From the NCBI GenBank assembly GCA_016214265.1, contig JACROU010000037.1, positions 3,859 through 67,858 on the forward strand: a DNA stretch of 64,000 nt. The letters are read 5' to 3'. A model generated the notes under the pieces. It was not told the DNA's origin, ran no database searches, and worked only from the letters and a program-made list of their open reading frames with translations. Within the stretch, counting starts at the first letter, position 1. Every line of letters starts with the position of its first letter. Source of the stretch: Candidatus Omnitrophota bacterium. Its GTDB lineage: Bacteria > Omnitrophota > Omnitrophia > Omnitrophales > JACROU01. The translations under genes and the position numbers were made by a program. Positions 3,829-61,947 of this stretch are shown here, piece after piece.

Positions 3829-3837
3829 AGGGTTACG

Positions 3838-5919: not shown

Positions 5920-5931
5920 TAATCACACCCC

Positions 5932-9341: not shown

Positions 9342-9363
9342 AATCCAAGGTGATGTTTTGCCT

Positions 9364-10269: not shown

Positions 10270-10272
10270 CTG

Positions 10273-10638: not shown

Positions 10639-11101
10639 TTCAGGTAAAGATCAAAATCTGGAGAAGCCTTTGTACGAAAAGTCTTTGTCGAGACGCGATT
10701 TTATCAGCTGGATTATCAAGGGCGGATTATTTATCACGTTTTTGAGCATGCTATTGCCCGCATTGGAATATATTTGGCCGGTGACTCGCCGTGGTCCAGT
10801 GGGCGGGGCTAATGATGTTGGTCGCGCCGATGACATTCCCGTTGGCAGCGCAAAAAAAGTAGATGTGTCCGGGACTCCGCTCATTTTAATTCACACACCG
10901 CAAGGATTTAATGCCTTCTCGGCGATTTGCACTCACCTTGGTTGTCTGGTGGGGTGGGATTCTCAGAAGCAATTAATTGCCTGCCCCTGTCATGCGGGAT
11001 TATTTGATACAACAGGCAGAGTGGTGGCGGGCCCGCCGCCAAGACCTTTGGCTTCTTATCCGGTGAATGTTGTGGATGGAAAAATTTTTATTAAACTCTA
11101 A
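10607..11101 (+). CDS. petA: Rieske [2Fe-2S] iron-sulfur subunit with twin-arginine signal (likely true start at 10631)
   Basis: SRRDFI Tat motif plus TM. Rieske boxes CTHLGC and CPCHAG. Confidence 0.85.
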   Translation: MRERKNTTMSDSGKDQNLEKPLYEKSLSRRDFISWIIKGGLFITFLSMLLPALEYIWPVTRRGPVGGANDVGRADDIPVGSAKKVDVSGTPLILIHTPQGFNAFSAICTHLGCLVGWDSQKQLIACPCHAGLFDTTGRVVAGPPPRPLASYPVNVVDGKIFIKL

Positions 11102-11124
11102 AACTCATTTTCAAAAAAATCCTC

Positions 11125-12294
11125 ATGATCAAACAATTTATTCAAAAGTGGTTTGAAGAGCGGTTTGACGTAGAGCAAATCAAACAGCCGCTAAAAAAGC
11201 AGATTGAGAAACCGCTTCCCCCGAACGTGGGTTGGCTTCACACACTGGGCAGTATGTCGTTGATCCTTTTTGTCAGTCAAGTCCTCACAGGGATTTTGCT
11301 GCTAATTTACTATCGTCCAACGGTCAACGAGGCGTTTGAAAGTGTGAAGTTCATCATGTCCAAAGCCTACATGGGATGGCTGTACCGGCAAATTCATGCC
11401 TGGGGCTCCAATCTCATGATCTTGATCGTATTTCTGCATATGCTGCGGACTTATATCATGGGATCTTTCAAGAAACCACGCGAGTTAACCTGGGTTTTTG
11501 GCGTTCTGCTTTTCTTTATAACACTTACTTTTGGTTTTACCGGATATCTTCTTCCCTGGAATCAGTTGTCATATTGGGCAACAACGGTGGGGACGGAACT
11601 GGCTGGGGGGGTTCCCTGGATTGGCTTGTTTATTAAAACCTTGCTGAGGGGAGGCCAGTCGGTGGGCGGTGAGACGCTTTCCCGTTTCTTTGTTGTGCAT
11701 GTCATCATATTGCCTTGGGCGCTTTTTTTCCTGATCATCATTCACATTTTTCTTGTTCGCTTTCAGGGAATTTCAACCATGGAGCCGGTTGGTGAGGAAA
11801 AGAAAGTTAAGCCCGATGAAGGAATTCCATTCTATCCCCATCATGCATTAAAAGAAGGCGTTGTGTTTTATCTTTTAATGGCCGTCCTGATTACGCTATC
11901 GATTTTAGTTCCTTTTGAGTTGGGAGAAAAAGCTGATCCCCTCCAAACGCCGGCTGGTATCAAACCCGAATGGTATTTTTTGCCCATGTATCAGGTGCTG
12001 AAATATTTCCCCAAAATGATAGGTATCTTTGTCGTTGGTTTGGCGCCGCTATTTTTGCTGTTCTGGGCTTTTTTGGATAACAGTAAACAACGCAATCCTC
12101 TTAAAAGACCCTTTTCGATAACGTTTTGCATTCTTGTCCTTATATCTCTGGTTGTGTTCGGAGTGATGGGGGCGTATTCAGAAACTAAAGTAACTTTATT
12201 TGGCAAAACTTACGATGTGGATGTGTACGGCGTTCCTCATCTGGCCGCCGCAAATATTATCGATCAAATTAATCCCGAGAAATCAACGACATGA
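11125..12294 (+). CDS. petB: Cytochrome b (fused b6/subunit IV-like, 389 aa)
   Basis: Canonical cytochrome b motifs (YMGWLYRQIHAWGSNLMILIVFLHMLRTY; LPWNQLSYWATTV). Multi-TM. Confidence 0.85.
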   Translation: MIKQFIQKWFEERFDVEQIKQPLKKQIEKPLPPNVGWLHTLGSMSLILFVSQVLTGILLLIYYRPTVNEAFESVKFIMSKAYMGWLYRQIHAWGSNLMILIVFLHMLRTYIMGSFKKPRELTWVFGVLLFFITLTFGFTGYLLPWNQLSYWATTVGTELAGGVPWIGLFIKTLLRGGQSVGGETLSRFFVVHVIILPWALFFLIIIHIFLVRFQGISTMEPVGEEKKVKPDEGIPFYPHHALKEGVVFYLLMAVLITLSILVPFELGEKADPLQTPAGIKPEWYFLPMYQVLKYFPKMIGIFVVGLAPLFLLFWAFLDNSKQRNPLKRPFSITFCILVLISLVVFGVMGAYSETKVTLFGKTYDVDVYGVPHLAAANIIDQINPEKSTT

Positions 12295-13790
12295 GTGAAG
12301 AAAAGAAACGAAATATTTATTTTCGAAACTGGATGAGTGTTATCGGCGGAATTCTCTCCGTAATTTTGTTTGCCGTTATTTTATTTCTGTTCGTTTTAGA
12401 CTTCCTTGATAAAGGGTTGAACCCTTATTTGGGAATTTTTACCTACGTTGTTGTGCCGGTTTTTTTGGTGATCAGTCTTTTGATGATTCCCATCGGCGCC
12501 TGGCGCGAGCGTGCACGATTTAAAAAACTTGGCCATGTTCAGCAATTTCCCCAGATTGATTTTAATAATCCCACACACCAGAAGATAGCATTTGCGGCTT
12601 GGGGCGTAGTTACGCTGTTTCTTCTTTTTTCAATGGTGGGTGCGTACCGGGCTTACGAGTTTTCGGAGTCTGTCACTTTTTGCGGGCGCACCTGTCATGG
12701 CGTGATGGGACCGGAATATATTGCGTACAAAAATTCCCCGCACGCGCATGTAGCCTGTGTGGAATGCCACATTGGGCCTGGGATTGACTGGTATATCCGT
12801 TCAAAACCTTCCGGAGCCCGTCAGGCTTATTTAACTCTTACAAACCGTTTTAATCGTCCTATTCCAACACCGATAAAGACGCTTCGCCCTGCTCGCGAAA
12901 CTTGTGAGCATTGCCATTGGCCCGAGCAGTTTTACGGGGATAAAGAAGTAAATCATAAATACTTTCTGCCTGATGAAACGAACACAGAATGGAAGGCTCG
13001 ATTACTTGTCCATGTGGGCGGTGCCAAGCCTCGTTATGGGCAGGGTGAAGGCATTCACTGGCATATGAAAGTTAATAATCAGGTTTATTACATCGCCACG
13101 GATGAGAAGAAAGAAAACATTCCATGGGTGCGGCAGATCAATCCTGATGGTAAAGAAGAGATATTTGTTGAAGAAAAATCCGGATACAGCGCTTCGAATC
13201 CGCCAAAAGGTGAAATCAAATTAATGGATTGTATGGATTGTCACAATCGCCCAAGCCATCACTTCAAAGCGCCATCGGAGTCCGTAAATGAAGCGATGGG
13301 CTTTGGACAGATTGACAGTTCACTGCCTTATATAAAACGTGAGGCGGTGAAAGCCTTGGTGGGGAATTACAAATCGAACTCAGAAGCAAAAGCCGAAATT
13401 CGCAAACGTCTCGAGACTTTTTACCGGGAAAAATACCCCGCAATTTGGGAGTCGAAAGGTAAAGAATTGCAGAGCAGTATTGACCGGGTGATTAATATTT
13501 ATAATGTCAACTTTTTCCCAGAAATGAAAACGTCATGGAAGGTGCATCCCAACAATATTGGGCATTTCATCTCTACGGGATGTTTTCGCTGCCACGATGA
13601 CAAACACAAAACTGCGGAAGGTAAAGTGATCCGGAAAGATTGTGCTATGTGTCATGCGATTATTGAGCAGGGCAAACCGGAGTTACTGGAAACTGCTGTG
13701 GCCGGGGTTGAATTCAAGCATCCCGAGGATATTGGCGAGGAATGGAAAGAGACGAAATGTTCTGATTGCCATACTGGCGAACTGGCTTAG
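12291..13790 (+). CDS. Membrane-anchored multiheme c-type cytochrome (about 7 hemes), c-type subunit of the Rieske/cyt b complex
   Basis: Two N-terminal TM helices. CxxCH x6 (CVECH, CEHCH, CMDCH, CFRCH, CAMCH, CSDCH) plus CGRTCH. Start overlaps the cyt b stop. Confidence 0.8.
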   Translation: MSEEKKRNIYFRNWMSVIGGILSVILFAVILFLFVLDFLDKGLNPYLGIFTYVVVPVFLVISLLMIPIGAWRERARFKKLGHVQQFPQIDFNNPTHQKIAFAAWGVVTLFLLFSMVGAYRAYEFSESVTFCGRTCHGVMGPEYIAYKNSPHAHVACVECHIGPGIDWYIRSKPSGARQAYLTLTNRFNRPIPTPIKTLRPARETCEHCHWPEQFYGDKEVNHKYFLPDETNTEWKARLLVHVGGAKPRYGQGEGIHWHMKVNNQVYYIATDEKKENIPWVRQINPDGKEEIFVEEKSGYSASNPPKGEIKLMDCMDCHNRPSHHFKAPSESVNEAMGFGQIDSSLPYIKREAVKALVGNYKSNSEAKAEIRKRLETFYREKYPAIWESKGKELQSSIDRVINIYNVNFFPEMKTSWKVHPNNIGHFISTGCFRCHDDKHKTAEGKVIRKDCAMCHAIIEQGKPELLETAVAGVEFKHPEDIGEEWKETKCSDCHTGELA

Positions 13791-13798
13791 CGCAGTTA

Positions 13799-13814
13799 TG
13801 TGACCTTCGTCACA
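13799..13814. promoter_or_regulatory. CRP-family-like binding site TGTGACCTTCGTCACA (TGTGA-N6-TCACA)
   Basis: Perfect CRP consensus half-sites. Extended 24-mer matches the site at 53012 at 21/24 positions, differing only within the spacer (shared ATGTGA plus CGTCACAGTTTT). About 150 bp upstream of the tetraheme cytochrome gene. Confidence 0.4.
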
Positions 13815-13967
13815 GTTTTAAACCGGGTTCTCTCGCTATAATTCGCTCTTGTCTTTGGAATTAGAGAACATTCCCATCGAATAGATTATTCGGTCGCACG
13901 TCTTATTAATTACAAAAGTTTTCGTTTTTCTATCAAAGTAGGCGAAGCGCAAACAAGGAGGATAGCG

Positions 13968-14522
13968 ATGAAGTCAGGTTATTTGTTGCCACAATTATTA
14001 AGGAGCTTTCTGGTTTTAACTGTTTTTGCTTTTTTGGCCACCCCCGTAGCTTTTGCCGCTGATCATGAATATGTCGGGGCGGCAAAATGCGGAATTTGCC
14101 ATAAGAAACCAGAGCAGGGCGAACAATATCGTATTTGGCAGGAATCAAAACATGCCAAGGCTTTTGAAGCACTGGGAACTCCCGAGGCAAAAGAAGTCGG
14201 CGCTAAACTGGGAATTGATGATCCTCAAAAGAGCGGAAAATGTTTGAAATGTCATTCCACGGCTTATGGACATACAGAACAAGTTGTTACGGATGCGATC
14301 CCGGTTGAAGAAGGCGTTTCTTGCGAAACATGCCATGGTGCCGGAAAAGATTATATGAAAAAGAGCGTCATGGAAGATGTTAACGCCGCGAAAGAAGCGG
14401 GATTAATTATTCCGGATGAGGCGACTTGCACAAAATGCCACAATTCGGAGAGCCCGACGTTCAAGCCGTTTGATTACAAAGAACGTTATGAGAAAATTAA
14501 ACATCCTAAACCCAATAAATAA
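13968..14522 (+). CDS. Periplasmic tetraheme c-type cytochrome
   Basis: Signal peptide. Four CxxCH (CGICH, CLKCH, CETCH, CTKCH). Strong RBS AAGGAGG upstream. Confidence 0.8.
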   Translation: MKSGYLLPQLLRSFLVLTVFAFLATPVAFAADHEYVGAAKCGICHKKPEQGEQYRIWQESKHAKAFEALGTPEAKEVGAKLGIDDPQKSGKCLKCHSTAYGHTEQVVTDAIPVEEGVSCETCHGAGKDYMKKSVMEDVNAAKEAGLIIPDEATCTKCHNSESPTFKPFDYKERYEKIKHPKPNK

Positions 14523-48339: not shown

Positions 48340-50346
<2,007 letters not shown>

Positions 50347-50374
50347 AATAATAGTAAGAAGAGAGGTTGGTACG

Positions 50375-51049
50375 ATGGCGCTGAAATTAAAAGATATTCC
50401 CTTATTTCATGGTCTTTCTGAAAGCGAACTTGCAGTAGTAAGACTCTGCTTGAAAGAGAAAACGTTCCAAAAAGGCGAGCTTCTATTTAATGAAGGGAAA
50501 TCCTGCGAGCGGGTGTTCATCGTTCAGCAGGGTCGCGTGAAACTGTACCGGATCGCCTCGTCGGGCCGCGAGCAAATTCTTGAAACCTTGGGGCCCGGTG
50601 ATACATGCGCCTGCAATCCCGGCGCCCAGGTTTGGTGTTGTACGACAACTGCGGAAGCGGTGACGCCGTGCAAGGTGTGGTTTTTGTCGCGGGAAGATTA
50701 TGTGAAAATGGTGCAAACCAATTCAAAAGTCAGCCAGGCCCTCAACCGGCTTTTTGCGGACCGTCTGAAAGCCTTCAGTTCACTTATCGAGGAAGTTTCG
50801 CTTAAAGACGTCAAAAAACGCCTCATCAAATTTCTTTTAGAGATGCACGCTGAGCGGAAAAGAAAATACGGGCAGGGTGACGCGATGTTTATTCCTTTCA
50901 CGCGCGAAGAAATTGCCCAAAGAATCGGTTCGGCCCGTGAGACAGTGGTGCGTTATCTTATGCAGTTGAAACGTTGTAAGCTCATCGATTTAAAACCGCA
51001 TCAAATTATCATTTGCGATCAGCACGGCCTCGAAAAACTCCTTCAGTAA
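50375..51049 (+). CDS. Crp/Fnr-family transcriptional regulator (cNMP-binding + C-terminal HTH)
   Basis: LFHGLSESELAVV...FNEGKSCERVFIVQQGRVKLY cNMP fold. C-terminal HTH REEIAQRIGSARETVVRYL. Confidence 0.8.
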   Translation: MALKLKDIPLFHGLSESELAVVRLCLKEKTFQKGELLFNEGKSCERVFIVQQGRVKLYRIASSGREQILETLGPGDTCACNPGAQVWCCTTTAEAVTPCKVWFLSREDYVKMVQTNSKVSQALNRLFADRLKAFSSLIEEVSLKDVKKRLIKFLLEMHAERKRKYGQGDAMFIPFTREEIAQRIGSARETVVRYLMQLKRCKLIDLKPHQIIICDQHGLEKLLQ

Positions 51050-51202
51050 TTGTCTTTTTTTTCGCATAACCAGTTCTGAAGGAGAAATCTCGCCGTGAGT
51101 TCTCCTTCGGAGTTGCTCGCAAGCCTTAGATTGTGACCCTGGTCACTGCTTAAAACGAAAGCTTTGTGTATCTTTGCCACATCAAAACAGGAGGTTGTTA
51201 TG

Positions 51203-51382: not shown

Positions 51383-52171
51383 ATGACCATTCCGCTTCAA
51401 AATTCGGTTGTCTATGGCCCCATACAATCCCGCCGACTGGGGAATTCTTTGGGCATCAATGTGCTTCCGACTGACATTAAATTTTGCCTTTCAAGCTGCA
51501 TCTATTGCCAATATGGCTGGACTGACTTGAGCGCGATGCAAAAAGTGAAACTTCATCCTGCCACAGAGCTGGTGAAGGAAATCGAGGACAGTTTTAAAAA
51601 AATATTTTCAACCGGCACCATCATTGACTCCATCACTTTTTCCGGCAACGGTGAGTCCACGCTGCATCCCGAATTCGGAACTTTAGTCCGGGAAGTTAAG
51701 CGATTGCGCAATCACTATTTTCCTGCCATCCCCGTTTCAATCCTTTCAGATTCTTCCCGGGTTTATCTTCCCGAAGTGCGTGAAGCCCTGGAGAAATTGG
51801 ACGAGCGGTATATGAAACTAGACACGGGCGATCAGGAAATGTATCAGAAAATAAACAATCCGGTTGTAAAGGCGGATTGGAACCGGATCGTCGACGGGCT
51901 CAGCCGTCTTTCTCAGGTGACATTGCAGAGTCTTTTTCTATCAGAGCCTGTAGATAATTCAAGCGGGGAAGCTCTTAACCGCTGGCTTGCAGCGCTCGCA
52001 CGTATTCATCCTGTCGGCCTTCAAATTTATACTGTATACCGTGATACGGCGGATCCGAAAGTAAAGTCGGTGACGTCGAAACGGCTGTCTGAAATCGCGC
52101 ATTTGGCCTGTCAAGTAACGGACTTGAGTACGGTGACTGCGGTCACAGATACTTTTTTGGAATTGATGTAG
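51383..52171 (+). CDS. Radical SAM domain protein
   Basis: CLSSCIYCQ (Cx3Cx2C) preceded by a GPIQSRRLGNSLGIN block. Confidence 0.55.
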   Translation: MTIPLQNSVVYGPIQSRRLGNSLGINVLPTDIKFCLSSCIYCQYGWTDLSAMQKVKLHPATELVKEIEDSFKKIFSTGTIIDSITFSGNGESTLHPEFGTLVREVKRLRNHYFPAIPVSILSDSSRVYLPEVREALEKLDERYMKLDTGDQEMYQKINNPVVKADWNRIVDGLSRLSQVTLQSLFLSEPVDNSSGEALNRWLAALARIHPVGLQIYTVYRDTADPKVKSVTSKRLSEIAHLACQVTDLSTVTAVTDTFLELM

Positions 52172-52195
52172 CTTTTTTCCGAGAGGTCGGACGAG

Positions 52196-52720
52196 ATGGC
52201 GCACAAGAAAAAAGAATTTAATGTGGTTCAATTACTCGAAAAAAGTCACGATGAGACTTTTCAGAGGACCGATCAATTTCGTGATCTGTTAATCAATCTG
52301 CGTTACGAAGGCAAGTTGTCACTGGGCAAAAACCTAAAGCAGGCCGAAGATGTGCTTAAGTTTTTTAGCCAGGAGCATGCCGGGCATATGCAGTTCGAAG
52401 AAGAAATCCTTTTCCCTTATTTAAAATCTCACGTGCCGAAACTTGAGCCGGTAATTTATCTTCTTCATGCGGAACATTTGGATTTTAAGAACAACCTGAA
52501 AAATTTTGAGAATCTCATCGGTGAGCTTTCCAAAGAAAGGCAGGAAAGCGACCGCGCCGTCATTTTTGAAAAAATCAGAGAAACAGGGGCTTATCTTATT
52601 TTCCTTCTCAGAAGTCACAATCAGTCTGAAAGTGAAAGCGTGTATAAAGTGATCGATCGTGAACTCCATGACGATGAGAAGGAAGAGCTTGCTGAAAAAA
52701 TAGAGAAGTTTCTGCCGTAA
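52196..52720 (+). CDS. Hemerythrin-like (HHE cation-binding) domain protein
   Basis: H/E-rich pairs (EHAGHMQFEEEILFPYL; HAEHLDF). Paralogous to the C-terminus of 14705..15628. Confidence 0.55.
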   Translation: MAHKKKEFNVVQLLEKSHDETFQRTDQFRDLLINLRYEGKLSLGKNLKQAEDVLKFFSQEHAGHMQFEEEILFPYLKSHVPKLEPVIYLLHAEHLDFKNNLKNFENLIGELSKERQESDRAVIFEKIRETGAYLIFLLRSHNQSESESVYKVIDRELHDDEKEELAEKIEKFLP

Positions 52721-52738
52721 CCGGAAAAACCCAAATCC

Positions 52739-52981
52739 ATGAAGCAAACTTACAAATGGCTGCCCGTAATAAAAAAAGAAAATTGTACGGGCTGTGGTTT
52801 ATGCGTTGAAGCATGTACGCCAAAATGTTTAGAGGTTGTCGATGGTGTTGTTGTTCTCACGCTTCCGATTCTTTGCGGAAGTGAGGAGCATTGCATTTCA
52901 CCTTGTAACTATGAAGCCATTGAGATGAAATGGGTGCCTGCGCCCGGACGTGACTATATCGGTTTGTGGCACGAAAAATAG
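52739..52981 (+). CDS. Small ferredoxin-like [4Fe-4S] protein
   Basis: CTGCGLCVEACTP Cx2Cx2Cx3CP motif plus additional Cys. Confidence 0.5.
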   Translation: MKQTYKWLPVIKKENCTGCGLCVEACTPKCLEVVDGVVVLTLPILCGSEEHCISPCNYEAIEMKWVPAPGRDYIGLWHEK

Positions 52982-53011
52982 TTTTCCCTCCATATTTATA
53001 TTCTGACATTA

Positions 53012-53027
53012 TGTGATCACCGTCACA
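53012..53027. promoter_or_regulatory. CRP-family-like site TGTGATCACCGTCACA upstream of rrf2-nosZ
   Basis: TGTGA-N6-TCACA. Extended match ATGTGANNNNCGTCACAGTTTT with the site at 13799. About 95 bp upstream of the Rrf2 start. Confidence 0.4.
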
Positions 53028-53121
53028 GTTTTTGATCTTCTTGAAATGTATGATAATAATGTGGATGTTAGTATCCATAATTTGAACGTTTATTCGTTTC
53101 TGTCTGAAGGGAATCTGAATT

Positions 53122-53589
53122 ATGTTCCGCCTGTATTCAAAAGGCTGTGAGTACGTAATCCGCGCATTGGCGCTTGTGAATGCCTCAAAAGAGGGGCGGT
53201 GTTTTTCTGTTAAGGATATTTGCAGAAAGGCCCGGTTGCCGGAATGGTATACCCGGAAGGTTTTTCAATCGTTGGTTCGAAACGGTTATTTAGAGGCTTC
53301 GCGCGGCCCGGGGGGTGGTTACACGTTAAAAGTCCACCCCAGTAAAATTTCGCTGTTAAATATGATCCGCGCAGTTGATGGTAAGGATGTTTTAGATCAA
53401 TGCATGATGAGTTCGGGAAAATGCAAGAACAAGAAATCCTGTGTGATGCATAACAAGTGGATTAGGATAAAAGAAAGTGTGGTTCGGGAATTAAAGTCGG
53501 TTACGGTTCAAGATCTAATGGATTTAACTTCTGGCAGAAGCAAACATGTTTCAACATTAAAAAGGAGGCATGAATCAAATGGGCATTAA
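53122..53589 (+). CDS. Rrf2-family transcriptional regulator (NsrR/IscR-like, 3-Cys)
   Basis: N-terminal wHTH (CEYVIRALALV...VKDICRKARLPEWYTRKVFQSLVRNGYLEASRGPGGGYTL) plus three C-terminal Cys. Confidence 0.8.
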   Translation: MFRLYSKGCEYVIRALALVNASKEGRCFSVKDICRKARLPEWYTRKVFQSLVRNGYLEASRGPGGGYTLKVHPSKISLLNMIRAVDGKDVLDQCMMSSGKCKNKKSCVMHNKWIRIKESVVRELKSVTVQDLMDLTSGRSKHVSTLKRRHESNGH

Positions 53590-55597
53590 AAACTGGAAAT
53601 GGTTTGCCGTGCTGGTCGCGGTGATTTTTGCGGGAGGTTTGTTTTTTCTCGGCAAGCCCGCAATGAAGGAGGTCAGCGCCGTGCAGGCGCCTGGACTCCC
53701 TGCGGACTCCATGCAGGTTATCCAAAAGAGAGGATTGAGCCCAGATGATGTTTTTGGCGCTCTGTCAACGTATGTGCCAACCGGGAAATATGATGAATAT
53801 TATATGTTTGCGTCGGGTGGGCATGGCGGACAAGTTTTGGTGATAGGCCTTCCTTCGATGAGACTGCTTCGAGTGATTGCCGTGTTTGAGCCGGAGTCAT
53901 GGCAGGGATACGGATTTGGCGTGAAAGAAAATCCGCTGGTCAATAAAACAGAAACTATTCCGGGACAGAAACCCAAAGATCTGTCTTGGGCGGATACGCA
54001 TCATCCCGGCCTCAGTGAAACAGACGGAAAATATGACGGCCAGTTTTTGTTTATCGGGGATAAAGCAAATGGCCGTTTAGCGGTAATTGATTTACGGGAT
54101 TTTGAAACGAAGCAGATTGTGGATAATCCCGTAGTCAATAACGATCACGGAGCCGCGTTTGTCACGCCAAACACGGAATATGTGGTGGAGTCGACGCAAT
54201 TTTCAGTTCCGCTCGGAGGCAAATACGCGCCGATTTCAGATTATCAAAAAGAATATCGCGGATTGGCTACGTTCTGGAAATTCGACCGGGCCAAAGGCCG
54301 TATTGATGGGGAAAAATCATTCGCGCTTGAATTGCCTCCGTACTGGCAGGATTTAGCCGATGCGGGAAAAGGGCCCAGCGACGGGTTTGTGTTCATCAAC
54401 TCGTTTAATACAGAAATGGCGACAGGGGGCATTGAGGAAGGAAATCCTCCGTTTGAGGCCGGCGTGTCTCAGCGGGATATGGATTATCTGCACGTGATTA
54501 ATTGGAAGAAAGCGGAAGAAGTAGTGCAGCAGGGCAAGTTCAAAGTCGTGAACGGGATGAAAGTGATTCCGCTCGATGTTTCCGCTGCGGAAGGGCTTCT
54601 TTATTTTATTCCCGAGCCGAAGAGTCCGCACGGAGTCGACATCACACCGAGCGGGAAGCATATCGTGATTGGCGGCAAGTTGGATCCGCACGTGACGATT
54701 TACGCCATCGATTTGATCCAGCAGGCGATTGAGAAAAAAGATTATGAGGGCACGGATCCGTACGGCATTCCGATTCTGAGATTCGATGCCGTGAAAAAAG
54801 CGCAGGTCGAATTGGGGTTGGGACCGCTACACACGCAGTTTGACAATCACGGTTACGCGTACACCAGCTTGTTTCTGGAAAGCGCCGTTGCCCGATGGAC
54901 GTTGGGCGACGATAAGTTTCAAGCCCCGGAAAAACCCTGGACGTTGGTGAGCAAAATCCCCGTTTCGTACAACGTGGGGCATATCGCTGTGGCTCAGGGC
55001 GACACAGTGGAGCCGGACGGGAATTATTTGGTCGCGCTCAACAAATGGTCGGTGGACCGGTTTCCCAACATCGGACCGCTTTTGCCGCAGAATCTTCAGC
55101 TGATCGACATCGCGCAAACCGGAGATCACATGAAGCTTCTGTACGATATGCCGATCGGGATGGCGGAGCCGCATTACGCTCAAATTGTCAGGGCCGACAA
55201 AATCAAAGCCTGGGAAGTGTATCCGGAAGTTGGGTGGAACGCGGAGACGCAATCGAAGAGTAATACCGCGGCTACTGAAAGCAAGGTCGTGCGGAGTGGC
55301 AACAATGTGGAAATTTTTATGACCGCTTTGCGCAGTCACTTTGATCCGGAACATATTAAGGTCAAACAGGGCGATCACGTGACGCTTCACATCACCAACA
55401 TGGAAAGAACCCGCGACGCCACCCACGGTTTCAACATTTCGAATTATAACATTGCGGCCAGTATGGAACCGGGTGAGACTGTGGATATTGATTTTATCGC
55501 CGATAAACCGGGCGTGTTTCCGTATTACTGCCTGGAGTTTTGTTCTGCGCTGCATCTGGAAATGATGGGTTATCTGATGGTAGAACCTGCGGAATAG
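53570..55597 (+). CDS. nosZ: Nitrous-oxide reductase NosZ with Sec-type signal (clade II-like); ATG at 53579 is the better-spaced start
   Basis: Seven-bladed propeller CuZ-domain His-containing blocks. C-terminal CuA motif CLEFCSALHLEMMGY. No RR motif in the signal peptide. Confidence 0.92.
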   Translation: MNQMGIKNWKWFAVLVAVIFAGGLFFLGKPAMKEVSAVQAPGLPADSMQVIQKRGLSPDDVFGALSTYVPTGKYDEYYMFASGGHGGQVLVIGLPSMRLLRVIAVFEPESWQGYGFGVKENPLVNKTETIPGQKPKDLSWADTHHPGLSETDGKYDGQFLFIGDKANGRLAVIDLRDFETKQIVDNPVVNNDHGAAFVTPNTEYVVESTQFSVPLGGKYAPISDYQKEYRGLATFWKFDRAKGRIDGEKSFALELPPYWQDLADAGKGPSDGFVFINSFNTEMATGGIEEGNPPFEAGVSQRDMDYLHVINWKKAEEVVQQGKFKVVNGMKVIPLDVSAAEGLLYFIPEPKSPHGVDITPSGKHIVIGGKLDPHVTIYAIDLIQQAIEKKDYEGTDPYGIPILRFDAVKKAQVELGLGPLHTQFDNHGYAYTSLFLESAVARWTLGDDKFQAPEKPWTLVSKIPVSYNVGHIAVAQGDTVEPDGNYLVALNKWSVDRFPNIGPLLPQNLQLIDIAQTGDHMKLLYDMPIGMAEPHYAQIVRADKIKAWEVYPEVGWNAETQSKSNTAATESKVVRSGNNVEIFMTALRSHFDPEHIKVKQGDHVTLHITNMERTRDATHGFNISNYNIAASMEPGETVDIDFIADKPGVFPYYCLEFCSALHLEMMGYLMVEPAE

Positions 55598-55600
55598 TTT

Positions 55601-58363
55601 ATGTCAGGACCAGGTCTTGAAAATCAAGACCTGGTCCTGGATTGGGAATCGTTCATGGAAAAAAAGACGGGAGTAAGGGCGCCTCGCGAGGCGCCCCTAC
55701 TGACGAGCCTATTGCTTGTGGCGGGAATTATTTTACTGCTTTTTTCTCTCGTTTTTCCTTACTGGAAAATTCACGTCATCGCTCCGCAGTACCCGAAGGG
55801 ATTAAACATTTCGATATTTGTCAATCATCTTGAAGGCGATGTTCAAGAAATTGACATGTTGAATCACTATATTGGAATGAAAATGCTGGGCAAAGCCGCT
55901 CAGATTGAGCGCAGCGTTGCGATTGCGGGTATTTCAACCATCACACTTTCGCTTCTTGTCGCACTTTTTTTGCGGCGCCGATGGTCGATTTTGTTTATTC
56001 TTCCGGCTATTTTCTTTCCCTCCATTTTCGCGCTAGACCTTTTTCTCTGGTTAAGAGATTACGGGCTTCACCTGGATCCGCATGCTCCGTTAAGTTCTTC
56101 CATCAAACCTTTTGTCCCGACGCTTTTCGGGAAAGGGATTATCGGTCAGTTTAAATCCATTTCATCGTTTGAAATCGGATTTTATTTCAGTGTTCTTGCG
56201 GCATTGTTAGCTTCCGTCGCTTCGATTCTGCGTTTCGGCGGCGGGAAAAAAATAGCGCATCAAATAATTCCCCTCGCTATCGGCCTTTCAGTCCTTTTCG
56301 GATCTTCTTCGGCCATCGCTAAAACAATTGATGTGATGACCGAATGTCCGGTGATGGATATTCAGCATGCTCTTGCCATTGCCGAACCCGGGGACACGAT
56401 TCGAGTTCACGGCGGCCGGGTGTATCACGGCCCGTGGGTGATTGATAAATCGGTAAAACTTGTCGGAGAAAATTTCCCCGTGATTGACGGCGGGGGAAAA
56501 GGAACCGTGGTGGATCTCCGGGCGCCTAACATTGAGATGCGGGGATTCGAGATTCGCGGGAGCGGCAATTCCCTCGTGGGCGAGGACACGGGAATTGTGG
56601 CGGAGGCGCCCGGCATTTTATTGGAAGACAATCGCCTGGATGACGTTCTTTTCGGGATTTCTCTGAAGCGCGCGCCGAAGTCGACCCTACGCGGCAATAC
56701 ACTTCACGGCAAAAGTCTTCCCGAGGCCCGCCGCGGCGATTTGATTCGCGTTTGGTACAGCGATGATGTGGTGCTGGACGGTAATCACACGACGGAAGGC
56801 CGCGACGCCGTGATCTGGTTTTCAAAACACGTGCTCCTTGAAAATAATATTTTTGAAGGCGGTCGTTACGGCCTGCATTACATGTATTGCGATGATTCCA
56901 CGGTGAAAAATAATATGTTCACCGGAAATTCCGTGGGTGTTTATATGATGTACAGTGAGCGCATTCAAATTCTTGGGAACCGGATTCTGAATAATCGCGG
57001 GCCCAGCGGATTTGGAATCGGCTTGAAAGATATGAGCAATGCTAAAGTTGAAAATAACATCATCGCGAATAACCGGGTGGGGATGTTCTTTGACGGGGCA
57101 ACGGGGGATTACCAACGAAATCTGATCGCGTTTAATGATATCGGCATTACCTTGCTTTCATCCTCTCAGCGCAATCATTTTAAGGAAAATAGTTTTGTCG
57201 AAAACGCCGAACAGGTGATTATCGAAGGCATGGGATCCACGATGTTGAATGACTGGAACGGGAATTTCTGGAGTGATTATCGCGGTGTGGATGCGAATCA
57301 AGACGGAGCGGGTGACAGACCGTATCAATCGAGAAAGCTATTCGAAAGACTGGTGGACCGGTATCCCGTTCTCAAACTTTTTTCGGCCAGTCCGTCCACG
57401 CAGGCGATTGATTTTGCCTCATCCACGTTTCCCGTTTTTGCGCCTCAGTCCCGGTTCCAGGATGCTGCCCCGCTTACGAATCCGGTTTTGCCCGAGGTGC
57501 GTGTTGAAACCGGGAAGCGATCATGGCCGTTTGTGATGATTTCGGGGATGTTGTTTTTGCCCATTTTGGGGCTTACAATCAGGAATCGATCGGACCTAAA
57601 ACACGGACTACCAATGCCATCAACCTCGACATCTTCAACTTTAGAATCCAACATCGCGATTCAAGTTTCCGAACTCACAAAAAATTTCGGAAAAGTCCAC
57701 GCGCTGAAACAAGTCAGCTTTCAGGTGAAACAGGGAGAAACGCTGGTGTTGTGGGGGCCGAACGGGGCCGGCAAGACGACGGTGCTTCGCTCGCTGCTCG
57801 GCATTATTCCATTTGAGGGCCAATTGAATGTTTGGGGGCTTGATGTGCGCTCGGCCGGAAAAGCCGTGCGGCGCGAGATCGGTTACGTGCCGCAGGAAAT
57901 CCGGTTTTACAACGATCAAACGGTTTGGGAGACGATTTGTTTTTTTGGACGGCTTCGCCGGGTCAGCAAAGAACGGGCGAAGCAGCTTCTCAAGGAATGG
58001 GATTTGGAAGCCTCCGTTCAAAAAAAAGTGAACGCGCTTTCGGGCGGGATGAAACAGCGGCTGGCTTTGGTGGTTTCTCTGTTGTCGGATCCGCCGATTA
58101 TTTTTCTGGATGAAGCCACCAGTCATTTGGATGTTCAGTCCCGCCGTGAATTTATCGCCCTGCTCGAGCGTCTTAAAAAAATGGGGAAGACTCTGATGTT
58201 GTGTTCACACCGTTCCAGCGAAGTGTGGAAATTGGCCGACCGGGTGCTCGTTCTGGATCAGGGGCTTAAAGTGATCGAGGGTTCGCCGGAAGAAGTGGTG
58301 CTTCATTTGGGCAAGGGAGCCTCCAATTGGTCCGCCGGCGGACCAATTGAGAGGGGCGATTGA
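55601..58363 (+). CDS. nosDF: Single 920-aa ORF: N-terminal 5-TM NosB-like domain + periplasmic NosD (parallel beta-helix) + TM + cytoplasmic ABC ATPase NosF
   Basis: Uninterrupted frame. NosD-type beta-helix repeats (…NNIFEGGRYGLHYMY…NNMFTGNSVGVYMMY…). Walker A GPNGAGKTT, ABC signature LSGGMKQRLAL, Walker B IIFLDEATSHLD. Hydropathy gives a topologically consistent arrangement. Confidence 0.8.
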   Translation: MSGPGLENQDLVLDWESFMEKKTGVRAPREAPLLTSLLLVAGIILLLFSLVFPYWKIHVIAPQYPKGLNISIFVNHLEGDVQEIDMLNHYIGMKMLGKAAQIERSVAIAGISTITLSLLVALFLRRRWSILFILPAIFFPSIFALDLFLWLRDYGLHLDPHAPLSSSIKPFVPTLFGKGIIGQFKSISSFEIGFYFSVLAALLASVASILRFGGGKKIAHQIIPLAIGLSVLFGSSSAIAKTIDVMTECPVMDIQHALAIAEPGDTIRVHGGRVYHGPWVIDKSVKLVGENFPVIDGGGKGTVVDLRAPNIEMRGFEIRGSGNSLVGEDTGIVAEAPGILLEDNRLDDVLFGISLKRAPKSTLRGNTLHGKSLPEARRGDLIRVWYSDDVVLDGNHTTEGRDAVIWFSKHVLLENNIFEGGRYGLHYMYCDDSTVKNNMFTGNSVGVYMMYSERIQILGNRILNNRGPSGFGIGLKDMSNAKVENNIIANNRVGMFFDGATGDYQRNLIAFNDIGITLLSSSQRNHFKENSFVENAEQVIIEGMGSTMLNDWNGNFWSDYRGVDANQDGAGDRPYQSRKLFERLVDRYPVLKLFSASPSTQAIDFASSTFPVFAPQSRFQDAAPLTNPVLPEVRVETGKRSWPFVMISGMLFLPILGLTIRNRSDLKHGLPMPSTSTSSTLESNIAIQVSELTKNFGKVHALKQVSFQVKQGETLVLWGPNGAGKTTVLRSLLGIIPFEGQLNVWGLDVRSAGKAVRREIGYVPQEIRFYNDQTVWETICFFGRLRRVSKERAKQLLKEWDLEASVQKKVNALSGGMKQRLALVVSLLSDPPIIFLDEATSHLDVQSRREFIALLERLKKMGKTLMLCSHRSSEVWKLADRVLVLDQGLKVIEGSPEEVVLHLGKGASNWSAGGPIERGD
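55607..55637 (+). terminator. Perfect 14-bp stem / 3-nt loop hairpin immediately 3' of the nosZ stop, inside the annotated 5' end of the next ORF
   Basis: GGACCAGGTCTTGA-aaa-TCAAGACCTGGTCC. Likely an mRNA 3' stabiliser or partial terminator. Suggests the downstream gene starts at ATG 55655. Confidence 0.4.
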
Positions 58364-59193
58364 TGGATCTTGTGAATGTCGGAATTATTTTGAGGAAGGA
58401 AATCGAGGATGCCCGGCGCAATCGCTGGTTTATTCTGCTTTCCGTTATTTTTTCAGGCCTGACTCTGACACTTTGTCTGTTTGGCTATTCCGGACTCGGC
58501 AATTTCGGTGTGGCGGGGTTCGGAAGAACGGCCGCGAGCATTCTCAATCTGGTGCTCTTGATTGTGCCGCTGATGGGACTCGTGCTCGGCGCGGTGAGCA
58601 TTTCCGGGGAGCGGGAGCACGGAACCTTGCTGATGCTCCTGGCGCAGCCCGTGACATCGTCGGAAATTCTCGTGGGAAAATATTTGGGTGTCGCGATCGC
58701 GGTGAGCGGCTCGCTTTTACTCGGTTTCGGATTAAGCGGCATGGTGATCGGATGGTACGGCGGCGCGGCTAATGTCGCCGGATATTTGATTTTGGTGGGA
58801 TTCACGTTGCTGCTTGGACTGGTGACGCTCGGACTCGGATTTTGTTTATCGGTATTTAATCACAAAAGCGCGACTGCTATCGGAGGCGCCATTTTCGTGT
58901 GGTTTTTGCTTTTGTTCATCAGTGATTTGGGCATGATGGGAACGGCGATGGTGCTGAAATTGGCTCCGCGAGTCCTGCTGTGGTTTACTTTTCTTAATCC
59001 TGTTCAGGTATTCCGATTGGCGGTGATCAATCTTCTGCACGGTGATTTGGAAAGCTTGGGCGGAGTCGGAACTTATGCGATGGAGGTTTTCGGCAGCGGA
59101 GCAACCTGGTTCTTTGCCGGTTTCTTATTTTTATGGGTTGTTGTACCATTGGTGTTATCATTGGTTGTTTTCAAAAGGAAATGTGTTTTATGA
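58360..59193 (+). CDS. nosY: ABC-2 type permease NosY
   Basis: 6-TM. Start overlaps the nosDF stop (ATGA). Confidence 0.8.
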   Translation: MMDLVNVGIILRKEIEDARRNRWFILLSVIFSGLTLTLCLFGYSGLGNFGVAGFGRTAASILNLVLLIVPLMGLVLGAVSISGEREHGTLLMLLAQPVTSSEILVGKYLGVAIAVSGSLLLGFGLSGMVIGWYGGAANVAGYLILVGFTLLLGLVTLGLGFCLSVFNHKSATAIGGAIFVWFLLLFISDLGMMGTAMVLKLAPRVLLWFTFLNPVQVFRLAVINLLHGDLESLGGVGTYAMEVFGSGATWFFAGFLFLWVVVPLVLSLVVFKRKCVL

Positions 59194-59642
59194 CGCGAAT
59201 TTTTATCGCCGGACTTCTTTTTTTGCTGATCGGATGCGGGAATAACGCCTTGAATCTTGAGCCGCATATCCGCTACGGCAATGACACGTGCAGTGATTGC
59301 CGCATGATTATCAATGAAGAGCCGTTTGCCGCCGCCATTATTGTTTCGCCTGAGCTTACGGTGAAATTCGACAGCATCAGTTGTTTGCTTCGTTACCATC
59401 AGGAAAACCCGTCCGTCGGTGGAACTATGTGGGTTCACGATTTTGATACGCGGCAGTGGGTGAATGCGCGCTCGGCGTTTTTTGTGCAGAGTAAAGATAT
59501 TTTGACGCCGATGGGCGACGGCTTGCTGGCGTTTTCAAGCCGGGATTCTGCTCAGGCCTGGGTTAACAAGACAAAGGGAACCTTTTACGAATTCTCAGAA
59601 CTTTCCAAAATACAAATCTCAAAGGGAGGCGTTGTTTCATGA
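59190..59642 (+). CDS. nosL: Copper chaperone lipoprotein NosL
   Basis: Lipobox LIGC. CSDCRM…M copper-binding pattern. ATG overlaps the nosY stop. Confidence 0.8.
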   Translation: MTRIFIAGLLFLLIGCGNNALNLEPHIRYGNDTCSDCRMIINEEPFAAAIIVSPELTVKFDSISCLLRYHQENPSVGGTMWVHDFDTRQWVNARSAFFVQSKDILTPMGDGLLAFSSRDSAQAWVNKTKGTFYEFSELSKIQISKGGVVS

Positions 59643-60355
59643 TTAAGAAAATGTTCTTCGGCTTAATGTTGGCGGGAATCGTTTTTAGTTTCCTTTCATC
59701 TGCGATGGCGGACGGCGGGGGGACTATTACGGGAAAAGTTGTTTACAAAGGCGAGGCCATTACACCTCAACCGATCAATTTTGGTCCCGAGAAGGCATGT
59801 GCGGCATCACATAAGGACAAAATGCCGGTAAATGAAGATATTGTAATTAACCCAGACAATACTGTAAAATGGGCCTTTGTACGCATCAAGGAAGATGTCC
59901 CTGGTGATTATCCCGCCCCTACGGATCCTGTCATCATTGAGCAAAACGGATGTATTTTTACTCCACACGGCGCTGCTGTTCGCGTTGGACAGCCAGTGGA
60001 ATTTCATAATAATGATGAGGTGCTGCACAACGTACGCGGAGCGTCAAAAGAGGGGCAGGCTTTTAATGTGGCTCAGCCACTCAAGGGGATGAAGACCAAA
60101 AAGACATTCGCGAAGCCGGAAATGGGGATGCAGCTGAAATGCGATGTTCATTTCTGGATGGCGGCCTATCTTCACGTTATGGCGAATCCGTTTTATGCCA
60201 TCACGGGTGACGACGGCTCTTTTACGATCAAAGATCTTCCGCCGGGCGATTACACGCTGGAGCTTTGGCACGAAAAATTGGGAATACTTACGAAACCTGT
60301 CAGCGTCAAAGCGGGCGAAACGCAAACAGTAGATTTTGAGCTCGAGAAAAAATAA
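59639..60355 (+). CDS. Secreted cupredoxin-like protein (candidate type-1 Cu site His…Cys-x2-His-x2-Met)
   Basis: Signal peptide. HNNDEVLHNV … KCDVHFWM gives an amicyanin-like ligand spacing. Flanking beta-sandwich segments. Translationally coupled to nosL. Confidence 0.5.
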   Translation: MIKKMFFGLMLAGIVFSFLSSAMADGGGTITGKVVYKGEAITPQPINFGPEKACAASHKDKMPVNEDIVINPDNTVKWAFVRIKEDVPGDYPAPTDPVIIEQNGCIFTPHGAAVRVGQPVEFHNNDEVLHNVRGASKEGQAFNVAQPLKGMKTKKTFAKPEMGMQLKCDVHFWMAAYLHVMANPFYAITGDDGSFTIKDLPPGDYTLELWHEKLGILTKPVSVKAGETQTVDFELEKK

Positions 60356-60363
60356 TAAACTTA

Positions 60364-61947
60364 ATGAGAAAACTTCTTTTAACCTCTGTTTGTCGTCCTT
60401 TGGGTGAGGATTTCGGCGATTCGAAATCTGTCGGATACGAACTTCTTCACGGTCAGGTGACGAGGGCGCAGGGCATTTTCAGCCTACGCACCGTGATTCA
60501 TCATTTCTCTCTGGAATATATCGCGCACAATCTCGACACGCCCACGACTGTCCTTCAATATCCTTCCGAAAAGGAATTTATTCGCGAATTAAAACACGGT
60601 TATGACTACGTCGGCATTTCCTTCGTGCTGGCCACGCTGCATCACATGCAGAGAATGTCGGCCTTGATCCGCAAATACTCACCCAAAAGCAAAATTATTT
60701 TGGGCGGATACGGCACCGTGCTGACGGATGAAGAGCTGAATCCTTACGGAGATTTTATCTGCCGTGAGGAAGGTATCGGATACCTCCGAAGGTTGTTGGG
60801 CGAACCGGAAAAGAAAATGCCGTATGATCACCCGGTCATCACGAATCGCCTCAAAATTTTCTCGGTGCCTTTCGGCGAGAACGGAATGATTTTCGCGGGA
60901 CTGGGATGTCCGAACGGCTGTGACTTCTGCTGTACCTCGCACTTTTTCAAGCGTCAGCACATCCGGCTGTTACCCACCGGCGATGATATTTTCTATACCA
61001 TAAAGAAATATTTGAACCAAAATCCGAAAATGAATTTCACCGTCCTCGACGAAGACTTTTTGCTGAATCAGGCACGCTCGCGGCGTTTTCTGGAATTGGT
61101 GCGCCAGGAGGGGATCACGCCGTCGATGTTCGTATTCTCCAGCATCAAAGCACTGTCGCAGTACGACGTGAAAGAACTGGTTGAGATGGGCATTACGGGG
61201 CTTTGGATCGGCTACGAGGGTAAGCATTCCAACTTTGAGAAACAGAAGGGTCGGAATCCGCAGGAATTGTTCAAAGATCTCCGTGATCACGGCATCGTCA
61301 TTCTGGCTTCGATGGTGATCGGGTTTGATTATCAGTCTCCGGAAATTATCAGCTCTGAGCTGGAAGAATTGTTGAGCCTTCATCCGACATTTACGCAGAC
61401 GCTGATTTACGGTCCGACTCCCGGCACGCCGTTTTATGATCGGATTGTGAAGGAAAAACGATTGGTGAGTGCCCTGGCTCAGGACCGCGCGTTGTACTAC
61501 AAACGCTGCACAGGATTTTATGGCATGATCCAGCATCCCAAATTGTCCCCGGAAGATCTTCAGCAAATTCAGGCGCGTTGTTTCCGGACCGATTTTGAAA
61601 AATTAGGCCCCTCGATTTTGCGCTCGATCGAAAATTGGTTTTTGGGATATCAAAAATTATATCAGGAAAAAAGCGAAGCGCTCCGCCGCCGCGCGGAAAG
61701 TTATCGGAAAGATATTCTGGACGCTGTTCCCATTTTTCTCTCGATTCGATTGCTGGGTCCGACGAAAGCAGTTCGCGCGAAAGCCAAAGAGCTTTATCGC
61801 CAGATCAACAAACATTTCGGCCGGCCTTCGTTGAAAGTTCACGTTTTGTCGTGGGGCGCGCTGGTCATGGCCTTCTGGACCGATCTGTGCCTCCGCTTCA
61901 AATGGTTTCAACACCCATCCCTAGTCCGCATTTCTTATCGAAGATAA
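60364..61947 (+). CDS. B12-binding-domain radical SAM protein
   Basis: N-terminal Rossmann-like B12-binding region (ILGGYG). CPNGCDFCC Cx3Cx2C. Confidence 0.6.
   Translation: MRKLLLTSVCRPLGEDFGDSKSVGYELLHGQVTRAQGIFSLRTVIHHFSLEYIAHNLDTPTTVLQYPSEKEFIRELKHGYDYVGISFVLATLHHMQRMSALIRKYSPKSKIILGGYGTVLTDEELNPYGDFICREEGIGYLRRLLGEPEKKMPYDHPVITNRLKIFSVPFGENGMIFAGLGCPNGCDFCCTSHFFKRQHIRLLPTGDDIFYTIKKYLNQNPKMNFTVLDEDFLLNQARSRRFLELVRQEGITPSMFVFSSIKALSQYDVKELVEMGITGLWIGYEGKHSNFEKQKGRNPQELFKDLRDHGIVILASMVIGFDYQSPEIISSELEELLSLHPTFTQTLIYGPTPGTPFYDRIVKEKRLVSALAQDRALYYKRCTGFYGMIQHPKLSPEDLQQIQARCFRTDFEKLGPSILRSIENWFLGYQKLYQEKSEALRRRAESYRKDILDAVPIFLSIRLLGPTKAVRAKAKELYRQINKHFGRPSLKVHVLSWGALVMAFWTDLCLRFKWFQHPSLVRISYRR

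Follow-up and report, generated by a model that had tools for sequence, protein, structure and literature searches.

A conserved NosB-NosD-NosF fusion and a candidate cupredoxin electron donor in a probable nitrous oxide reductase operon of clade II type from an uncultured Omnitrophica bacterium

No biological sink for nitrous oxide (N2O) other than N2O reductase, NosZ, is known, and organisms carrying the clade II enzyme dominate this sink in many environments; the maturation of the clade II enzyme and its electron supply are far less clear than those of clade I. The cluster of Wolinella succinogenes (nosZ, B, D, G, C1, C2, H, F, Y, L) combines a Sec-type NosZ with a NosB that is essential there, a NosGH menaquinol dehydrogenase module and NosC cytochromes. 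In Ardenticatena maritima and other Chloroflexota the clade II clusters have the order nosZ-nosB-nosD-nosF-nosY-nosL, with nosB directly after nosZ and without nosR, nosX, nosG or nosH, and a gene for a monohaem cytochrome c of about 145 amino acids (aa) follows nosL. The copper route has been described for Pseudomonas stutzeri as leading from NosL to NosD to NosZ, driven by the NosF/NosY ATP-binding cassette (ABC) module (bioRxiv 10.64898/2025.12.16.694761), and the structures of its NosDFY-NosL system (PDB 7O0Y series) show separate polypeptides with one NosD for two NosF and no NosB. In Bacteroidota (Dyadobacter fermentans, Flavobacterium azooxidireducens) a NosB with the LNHYIGM motif is fused to NosL and thus joined to a copper-maturation partner (PMC9697520). 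Here we describe a nos locus at 53122-60355 of a 64-kb window (64,000 nucleotides (nt) of contig JACROU010000037.1, to which all coordinates refer) from the genome of an uncultured Omnitrophica bacterium, in which NosB, NosD and NosF form one continuous reading frame and a cupredoxin gene stands in the place of the cytochrome c gene of the Chloroflexota clusters.

The locus consists of six open reading frames (ORFs), all on the plus strand and either overlapping or a few bases apart. These are rrf2 (53122-53589), for an Rrf2-family regulator (PF02082, E = 5e-31); nosZ (53570-55597), for a Sec-dependent (clade II) N2O reductase of 675 aa (TIGR04246); the fused nosBDF (55601-58363), 920 aa in a single continuous frame; nosY (58360-59193), for an ABC-2 type permease (ABC2_membrane_2, 2e-37); nosL (ORF 59133-59642, likely start 59190), for a copper chaperone lipoprotein (PF05573, 59 bits against a cutoff of 24); and the cupredoxin gene (59639-60355), for a secreted protein of 238 aa with a type-1 copper domain. 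A first-pass annotation, made from the sequence alone, had proposed the order rrf2-nosZ-nosB~D~F-nosY-nosL-cupredoxin, and the profile searches recovered every one of these genes on the plus strand, with a fusion that is real; the position from which it had counted the gene cluster, 53012, is non-coding and belongs to a TGTGA-N6-TCACA palindrome that is treated below. The start of nosY overlaps the stop of nosBDF, the cupredoxin gene overlaps nosL by 4 nt, and the nosL start at 59190 gives the N-terminus MTRIFIAGLLFLLIGC with the lipobox LLIGC. The last 20 nt of rrf2 overlap the start of nosZ (11 nt if the second ATG of nosZ is the start) and the nosZ Shine-Dalgarno sequence, AAAGGAGG, sits within rrf2; the two genes are thus arranged as expected for translational coupling, a feature that sets the locus apart from the Chloroflexota clusters. 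The overlap had been noticed before and assigned to the start region of rrf2, while it is the 3' end of that gene that takes part in it.

Considering that the same gene order was found again in independent assemblies at a protein identity of 52-54%, and that the locus agrees by 99.99% over 7,683 bp with a second and independent assembly of this population (which reaches 6.3 kb past the window end), the arrangement is neither a product of chance nor an assembly artefact. In addition, an NCBI protein (P0001) is identical to the fused protein from ORF residue 19 onward (902 aa). The explanation that we prefer, with a probability of roughly 0.7, is that the locus is a complete, self-contained clade II N2O reductase operon of an uncultured Omnitrophica bacterium, operating by the mechanism set out in the following paragraphs. 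The enzyme class, the lack of nosR and nosGH and the neighbouring Rrf2 gene are already known for such systems; what is noteworthy is the covalent NosB-NosD-NosF machine with its relatives, and the cupredoxin in place of a cytochrome c.

NosZ passes the Sec-dependent model TIGR04246 with 854 bits (cutoff 625) and stays below the cutoffs of the Tat-dependent model (435 bits, cutoff 625) and of the model for clade III L-NosZ (190 bits, cutoff 700). Its N-terminus, MNQMGIKNWKWFAVLVAVIFAGGLFFLG, is a hydrophobic signal with no twin arginine (RR) within the first 40 residues, and its identity to the NosZ proteins of Ardenticatena maritima and other Chloroflexota is 57-75%. An alignment to a solved N2O reductase showed that all CuZ histidines (144, 145, 193, 354, 421, 471 and 535) and all CuA ligands (H619, C654, C658, H662 and M665) are kept. 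By family model and ligands we assign it to the clade II (Sec-dependent) N2O reductases, so that the earlier label "Sec-type (clade II-like)" is borne out by the passed Sec model, the failed Tat model and the missing twin arginine. The protein stops at residue 675 without a C-terminal cytochrome c domain, a domain that we take to be present in the NosZ of Wolinella succinogenes.

The ORF that follows nosZ opens directly with the NosB domain. Within its 920 residues, the NosD model TIGR04247 matched residues 254-626 with 396 bits (cutoff 300) and the ABC ATPase covers residues 686-905 (ABC_tran, 9e-30), while a search of the PDB found the solved P. stutzeri proteins NosD (3e-31) and NosF (2e-32). 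Hydropathy analysis gave a coherent topology for the whole chain, on the plus strand: a NosB domain with four predicted transmembrane (TM) helices (55655-56245, ORF residues ~19-215), a fifth helix that corresponds to the retained NosD signal peptide (TM5, 56264-56320), some 400 periplasmic residues of the NosD beta-helix, the copper-relay component (56321-57523), a sixth helix that carries the chain back to the cytoplasm (TM6, 57524-57580), and the cytoplasmic ABC ATPase NosF (57581-58363). This topology fits the positive-inside rule, with short lysine- and arginine-rich (K/R-rich) loops on the cytoplasmic side. TM6 equals the C-terminal membrane anchor of unfused NosD, which is seen in sister loci including those of Ardenticatena maritima and of another Omnitrophica metagenome-assembled genome (MAG). 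Given that unfused NosD already ends in a TM anchor, the loss of stop codons alone would produce a topologically valid chain, and the fusion arose through the joining of neighbouring genes that are separate in the sister clusters. TM5 displays a K/R-rich n-region, an h-region and the sequence SSSAIA/KT, which may be a signal-peptidase site.

The fused protein probably starts at the ATG at 55655, which is also the start in the NCBI record (902 aa): a perfect 17-bp stem-loop, beginning 7 nt past the nosZ stop, fills 55604-55640 on the plus strand and leaves a probable intergenic spacer of 57 nt. A second GC-rich hairpin follows on the same strand at 55672-55701, and the two together have a folding energy of -58.9 kcal/mol (z = -6.7). 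The hairpin after nosZ could raise the expression of nosZ relative to that of the accessory genes.

The N-terminal domain of the fused protein is approximately 50% identical to more than 1,700 proteins, mostly stand-alone, of about 215 aa and without a Pfam family. It carries LNHYIGM at ORF residues 87-93, a motif described as the NosB signature (PMC9697520), and its two periplasmic loops hold this motif and WLRDxGLxLDP...KPFVP. Ardenticatena maritima and a further Omnitrophica MAG (L006, L007) encode a homologue of about 215 aa as a gene of its own, placed after nosZ and before nosD in the order nosZ-B-D-F-Y-L. The published motif and this synteny identify the domain as a NosB by sequence. 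In public databases the stand-alone NosB is often misnamed "cytochrome C" or "copper chaperone NosL"; it lacks CXXCH. NosB has no conserved cysteine at all and no haem- or Fe-S (iron-sulfur)-type ligand pattern. Among its cysteine, histidine and methionine residues, only H89 and M93, both in LNHYIGM, are invariant in the stand-alone proteins and near-invariant in the fused set; with one invariant His and one invariant Met, potential metal ligands are few. The predicted structure (predicted local distance difference test, pLDDT, of 89) is a four-helix bundle with a small periplasmic sheet on top, and a fold search with it gave no match to a redox fold, only weak matches to auxiliary subunits of the claudin/TARP type (template modelling score, TM-score, of 0.35-0.46). 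The lack of conserved cysteines, the scarcity of ligands, the fold and the fusions of NosB with NosL and with NosD-NosF favour a role in copper insertion over one in electron transfer, and NosB would be an auxiliary subunit of the copper-insertion machine and not a redox protein.

The fusion also bears on the composition of the transporter. In the PDB, P. stutzeri NosD is present with 16 chains in 16 entries and NosF with 34 chains in 17 entries (over three deposited sequences), counts that correspond to one NosD per NosF dimer. A single D-F chain forces NosD and NosF to 1:1 unless it is processed, against the 1:2 of the P. stutzeri structures, so a NosF dimer would bring two NosD and two NosB to each NosF2Y2. 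We therefore consider, tentatively and at odds that we place clearly below even, that in this large part of clade II NosB is a built-in auxiliary subunit of a symmetric (NosB-NosD-NosF)2(NosY)2 complex, or (NosBDFY)2 in Armatimonadota, with two copper-relay NosD arms per transporter, and that the blue-copper protein of the lineage has replaced a cytochrome c as the donor to CuA. Copper is presumed to follow the same route as in P. stutzeri, whose NosD, NosF, ABC-2 permease and NosL are homologous to those encoded here. Fusions of this kind act as a natural "Rosetta stone" that places NosB physically with NosD, NosF and NosY, they indicate that the 1:2:2 stoichiometry of NosD:F:Y in P. stutzeri cannot be universal (again, unless the 1:1 D-F chain is processed), and single-chain NosBDF or NosBDFY would be convenient targets for structural work.

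To see how widespread the fusion is, one genome per species was scanned and fusions were called by tracking the reading frame of tblastn domain hits, in 88 loci including that of the window (80 species representatives). Calling fusions by ORF length had been abandoned in favour of this procedure, given that high-GC genomes yield long spurious stop-free frames. Separate genes (B D F Y) occur in 41 of the 88 loci, B D-F Y in 20, B D-F or D-F with a missing end in 4, B-D-F Y in 9, B-D-F-Y in 4 and B D-F-Y in 1, with other unfused or partial arrangements in the remaining 9. The gene order B, D, F, Y is universal across the 80 species-level genomes, and among the species representatives D and F are fused in 32 of 78 classifiable loci (41%). 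The B-D-F fusion is found in Omnitrophica, Planctomycetia, Gemmataceae/Fimbriiglobus, Poribacteria and Elusimicrobiota, and B-D-F-Y in Armatimonadota; the sole cultured genome in the list, that of Fontivita pretiosa, is unfused. The best 120 homologues of the fused protein, from Omnitrophica, Isosphaeraceae, Gemmataceae and Armatimonadetes, measure 775-1310 aa and all have NosD and ABC_tran domains, those of 1270-1310 aa including the permease as well. The fusion is thus real and conserved, a lineage-wide variant of a known system. A literature search found nothing on B-D-F or D-F fusions, a negative that is limited in that key subscription reviews were outside its reach. One fused homologue of 1148 aa (P0011) has two tandem NosB domains ahead of NosD-NosF.

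The last of the six genes encodes a protein in which H130, N131, C168, H171 and M174 are invariant across 46 homologues (first seen in five syntenic ones), the type-1 copper pattern H-N...C-x2-H-x2-M. Its AlphaFold model (AF2) has a pLDDT of 89.8, and the best Foldseek matches are plastocyanin, amicyanin, pseudoazurin and an archaeal cupredoxin of N. maritimus, with E values of 1e-6 to 1e-4 and TM-scores of 0.7-0.76 on the target; the score against the plastocyanin model TIGR02656 was 19.6 bits, below its cutoff of 87.85. Ligands and predicted fold thus support the earlier description of a terminal cupredoxin as a genuine type-1 copper protein. Pseudoazurin, amicyanin and plastocyanin share with it the fold and the H...C-x2-H-x2-M ligands with the His-Asn pair; it differs from them by its 238 aa and by a cupredoxin domain that appears, in the model, to be nested in a beta-sandwich resembling CarboxypepD_reg. 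The Pfam match to CarboxypepD_reg is C-terminal and covers positions 31-82 of the 82-position model alone, and a strand at the N-terminus, GGTITGKVVYKGE, is similar to the beginning of this domain. Two more invariant cysteines, C54 and C105, may form a disulfide.

Of the 10 B-D-F(-Y) loci with enough flanking sequence, 9 have a homologue of the cupredoxin after nosL; so does one unfused Omnitrophica locus, and the homologue is absent from all other loci scanned. In 45 of the 55 loci without the cupredoxin, a c-type cytochrome ORF adjoins the cluster on the same strand; all six that were tested with Pfam are class I cytochromes c (Cytochrom_C), and the typical ORF encodes either a monohaem protein of ~145 aa directly after nosL or a dihaem protein of ~300 aa directly before nosZ. 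Since the two distributions are complementary, the cupredoxin occupies the slot of the cytochrome c. By lineage, the ~145-aa monohaem form after nosL was seen in Chloroflexota, KSB1, Calditrichota and Thermoanaerobaculia, the ~300-aa dihaem form before nosZ in Phycisphaerae, and a cupredoxin followed by a dihaem cytochrome c in Gemmataceae. In Paracoccus, pseudoazurin and cytochrome c550 can stand in for each other as donors to CuA (PMC6530538). From its position in the operon, it is reasonable to consider the cupredoxin a candidate for the immediate donor to CuA, as had been suggested at first sight of the sequence; electrons would reach CuA from this secreted type-1 copper protein, which would replace the class I cytochrome c of the sister clusters. 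The complementary distribution suggests a copper-for-iron donor switch in Omnitrophica, Planctomycetia and Armatimonadota, and such a switch bears on the control of N2O consumption by metal availability.

As to the source of these electrons, a bc complex at 9364-14522 had been put forward by the first-pass annotation, and its parts are real: a Rieske Fe-S protein (10607-11101) and a cytochrome b (11125-12294), both on the plus strand, and three multihaem cytochromes, one with nine haems (9187-10269), one with six (12291-13790) and a tetrahaem c554-like one (13968-14522, plus strand), the last being a candidate to connect the Rieske/cytochrome b complex with the cupredoxin or with NosZ. The cupredoxin would be reduced via this complex and its multihaem cytochromes, located 40 kb upstream. 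A shared promoter box and an analogy with Wolinella are what point to the complex as the electron source of NosZ; clade II N2O respiration depends on a Rieske/cytochrome bc complex in that organism, according to passages of PMC9697520 and PMC11409646 that cite Hein et al. (2017). Directly ahead of the Rieske/cytochrome b cluster, at 3037-9341, lie a 7-haem cytochrome, a 693-aa ORF without a family match and ResB/CcsA (system II cytochrome c maturation).

The promoter box is a perfect TGTGA-N6-TCACA palindrome of the Crp type. Two of these occur in the 64 kb, against 0.02 expected: box 1 (53012-53027, TGTGATCACCGTCACA), upstream of rrf2-nosZ and overlapping the -35 region, and box 2 (13799-13814), upstream of the tetrahaem cytochrome gene. 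Both are part of near-identical 24-nt sites, TTATGTGA-N6-TCACAGTTTT (53008-53031 and 13795-13818), and each stands 22-23 nt upstream of a -10-like hexamer. For box 2 this is TATAAT, at 23 nt; for box 1 the candidates are TATGAT at 53049-53054 and an alternative at 53055-53060, which put the centre of the box approximately 41-48 nt upstream of the expected transcription start. Promoters activated by Crp/Fnr proteins in the class II manner have their box over the -35 region. Boxes with one mismatch were found at 51132-51147 and 52132-52147, upstream of a radical SAM gene and of a hemerythrin gene. A Crp/Fnr-family regulator is encoded nearby (50324-51049, plus strand) with the recognition helix RETVVR, which we take to be nearer to that of CRP (RETVGR, which binds TGTGA) than to that of FNR, making it a candidate binder of the TGTGA-N6-TCACA boxes; it would activate transcription of the nos operon at the box over the -35 region. 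The shared sites suggest that the nos operon and the tetrahaem cytochrome gene are co-regulated, which gives modest support to the proposed electron path, and, together with the one-mismatch boxes, a small Crp-family regulon of the nos operon, the tetrahaem cytochrome, the hemerythrin and the radical SAM enzyme.

Several points weigh against the proposed operon and mechanism. The operon is known here from the genes of an uncultured organism alone. The AxA-type motif at TM5 could be cut, which would release NosB and weaken its covalent tether; two tethered NosD may not both fit on one transporter, the solved complex having one; and the NosB fold resembles claudin/TARP proteins only weakly. The cupredoxin might serve in copper handling instead of electron transfer, nosG/nosH, nosC or other donors could sit elsewhere in the genome, and the link to the bc complex draws on one shared motif and an analogy. 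Furthermore, the Crp-type box was not found upstream of rrf2 in the related loci L001 and L002, the latter having only GTGA-N6-TCAC variants, upstream of hemerythrin and cox genes.

These points lead to other explanations for the fused chain and its surroundings. That an assembly error or a frameshift joined three genes into the 920-aa ORF, for which only the unusual length of the ORF speaks, has a negligible probability in our view and is ruled out by the homologues (more than 100 independent ones share the architecture), by the frame tracking and by the second assembly, next to the identical NCBI protein and the coherent topology of the fused chain. It is unlikely, though well worth weighing, that the fusion is genetic only, with signal peptidase cutting the NosB-NosD junction at SSSAIA/KT into a free NosB and a NosD-NosF protein, in which case NosB may have its place in another process such as electron transfer. 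The K/R-rich linker and the hydrophobic stretch before NosD are present in 27 of 27 aligned fused proteins, most of them also with a c-region of small residues; the product NosD-NosF would match the commonest fused form, B D-F Y; and an electron-transport role for NosB is considered in part of the literature cited by PMC9697520. However, the B-D-F fusion has been kept in several phyla and, in Armatimonadota, includes NosY as well, NosB is a protein without conserved cysteine and without ligands of the haem or Fe-S type, and its partners, both those seen here and the NosL named for Bacteroidota, are maturation components (PMC9697520). The partner differs between the two sets of fusions, being NosL in Bacteroidota and NosD-NosF here, with NosY added in Armatimonadota; a NosB-NosC2 fusion is mentioned in a passage of PMC11409646.

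Regarding the cupredoxin, it could be a factor for copper handling or storage that feeds NosL/NosD as periplasmic cupredoxins of the CopI type would, the true donor being a cytochrome c encoded elsewhere. Such a role would agree with a gene directly after, and overlapping, that of the copper chaperone NosL, with the additional non-cupredoxin domain of the protein and with the Gemmataceae loci, where cupredoxin protein and dihaem cytochrome c are both present. We nevertheless judge it improbable in view of the complete type-1 site with its canonical His-Asn, invariant in 46 sequences, the electron carriers that are its nearest folds, the complementarity with the class I cytochrome c that takes this place in other operons and the established blue-copper donors to N2O reductase (PMC6530538). 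The operon as a whole might also serve the detoxification of N2O or nitric oxide (NO) stress under microoxic conditions, and not respiration via the Rieske/cytochrome b complex, the shared box then marking a common low-oxygen regulon only. In line with this are the genes for a hemerythrin, a ferredoxin and a radical SAM protein just upstream, which have similar boxes, the cbb3-type oxidase cluster and NnrS just downstream, and the lack of nir or nor genes among the ORFs scanned in the window. Clade II NosZ, however, supports the growth of many non-denitrifiers (PMC9697520; also stated in a part of PMC11409646), and the operon carries genes for a dedicated donor and for a complete maturation set, so that we give detoxification a small chance compared with N2O respiration by the self-contained operon described above.

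The absence of NosR and of NosGH, from which the first-pass annotation had derived an electron path through c-type cytochromes and the bc complex, was examined within and beyond the window. By Pfam, no NosR-like or NapG/NapH-like domain was matched in about 50 of the larger window ORFs; FMN_bind/Fer4 proteins of the NosR type and ApbE-like proteins (nosX) were absent among the ORFs scanned in the 64 kb and in the next 6.3 kb; and nosR, nosG and nosH were not seen in the gene table of the 6.3 kb past the window end. When every ORF of 80 aa or more in the 64 kb was checked for CX2CX2CX3C, one matched, an 80-aa ferredoxin at 52739-52981, which was rejected as a remnant of NosG or NosH for being a cytoplasmic protein of one small domain, without a signal peptide and encoded outside the operon. 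The absence itself therefore stands, over 53 kb on the upstream side of the operon and ~10 kb on its downstream side, but the special meaning attached to it was overstated, this being the norm for clade II, whose clusters are by definition without nosR (PMC9697520). Likewise, in the sister-cluster neighbourhoods whose gene tables were read, no nosG/nosH-like or NosR-like genes lie beside nos. Compared with Wolinella succinogenes, whose Sec-type NosZ and NosB it shares, the locus is without the NosGH menaquinol dehydrogenase module and without NosC cytochromes, and has B, D and F fused.

The Rrf2 protein reached no subfamily cutoff in NCBIfam, scoring 72 bits with IscR, 67 with the SUF regulator, 50 with CymR, 43 with RirA and 40 with NsrR (the equivalog cutoffs being 207.55 bits for IscR and 182 bits for NsrR). 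Among solved structures, IscR is the nearest (43 bits) and NsrR comes at rank 10 of 12 with 27.5 bits, below CymR, and the residues C94-x6-C101-x5-C107-x2-H110 align with the Cys3-His ligands of IscR. Scores and structure ranking speak against an identity as NsrR, and the earlier description "NsrR-like" finds no support, IscR being closer and the ligands of its Cys3-His type. The protein has the winged-helix Rrf2 fold and the three clustered cysteines of IscR and NsrR, differs from them in that its gene is beside nosZ and not beside isc or hmp, and by sequence is best described as an Rrf2 regulator of the Fe-S type. Co-translated with NosZ, it would tune nos transcription after activation by the Crp-family protein. 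Of the 82 loci with any hit, 25 have an Rrf2 homologue no further than 8 kb from nosZ, and in about a dozen it is directly upstream; that Rrf2 genes are enriched on scaffolds with clade II nos genes is already published (PMC6264515).

On both sides of the operon there are genes of related interest. Between the Crp-family gene and rrf2, at 51383-52981, lie those for a radical SAM protein (262 aa), a hemerythrin (174 aa) and the 80-aa 4Fe-4S-type ferredoxin; near the nos cluster of L002 there are likewise a hemerythrin homologue and a Crp homologue, 63% identical to the product of 50324-51049. Past the window end (L088 6911-14038, approximately window 63228-70355), genes for a cytochrome c, COX1, FixO, FixS, a P-type ATPase and NnrS form what looks like a cbb3-type oxidase cluster with a copper-delivery ATPase and an NO-related membrane protein. 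Finally, 8 nt past the cupredoxin gene on the plus strand, a gene for a B12-binding radical SAM protein of 527 aa (60364-61947) may be the last gene of the operon; the protein has weak HpnJ/BchE-like matches, and a 70% identical homologue adjoins the nos cluster in L002 (15407-16990).

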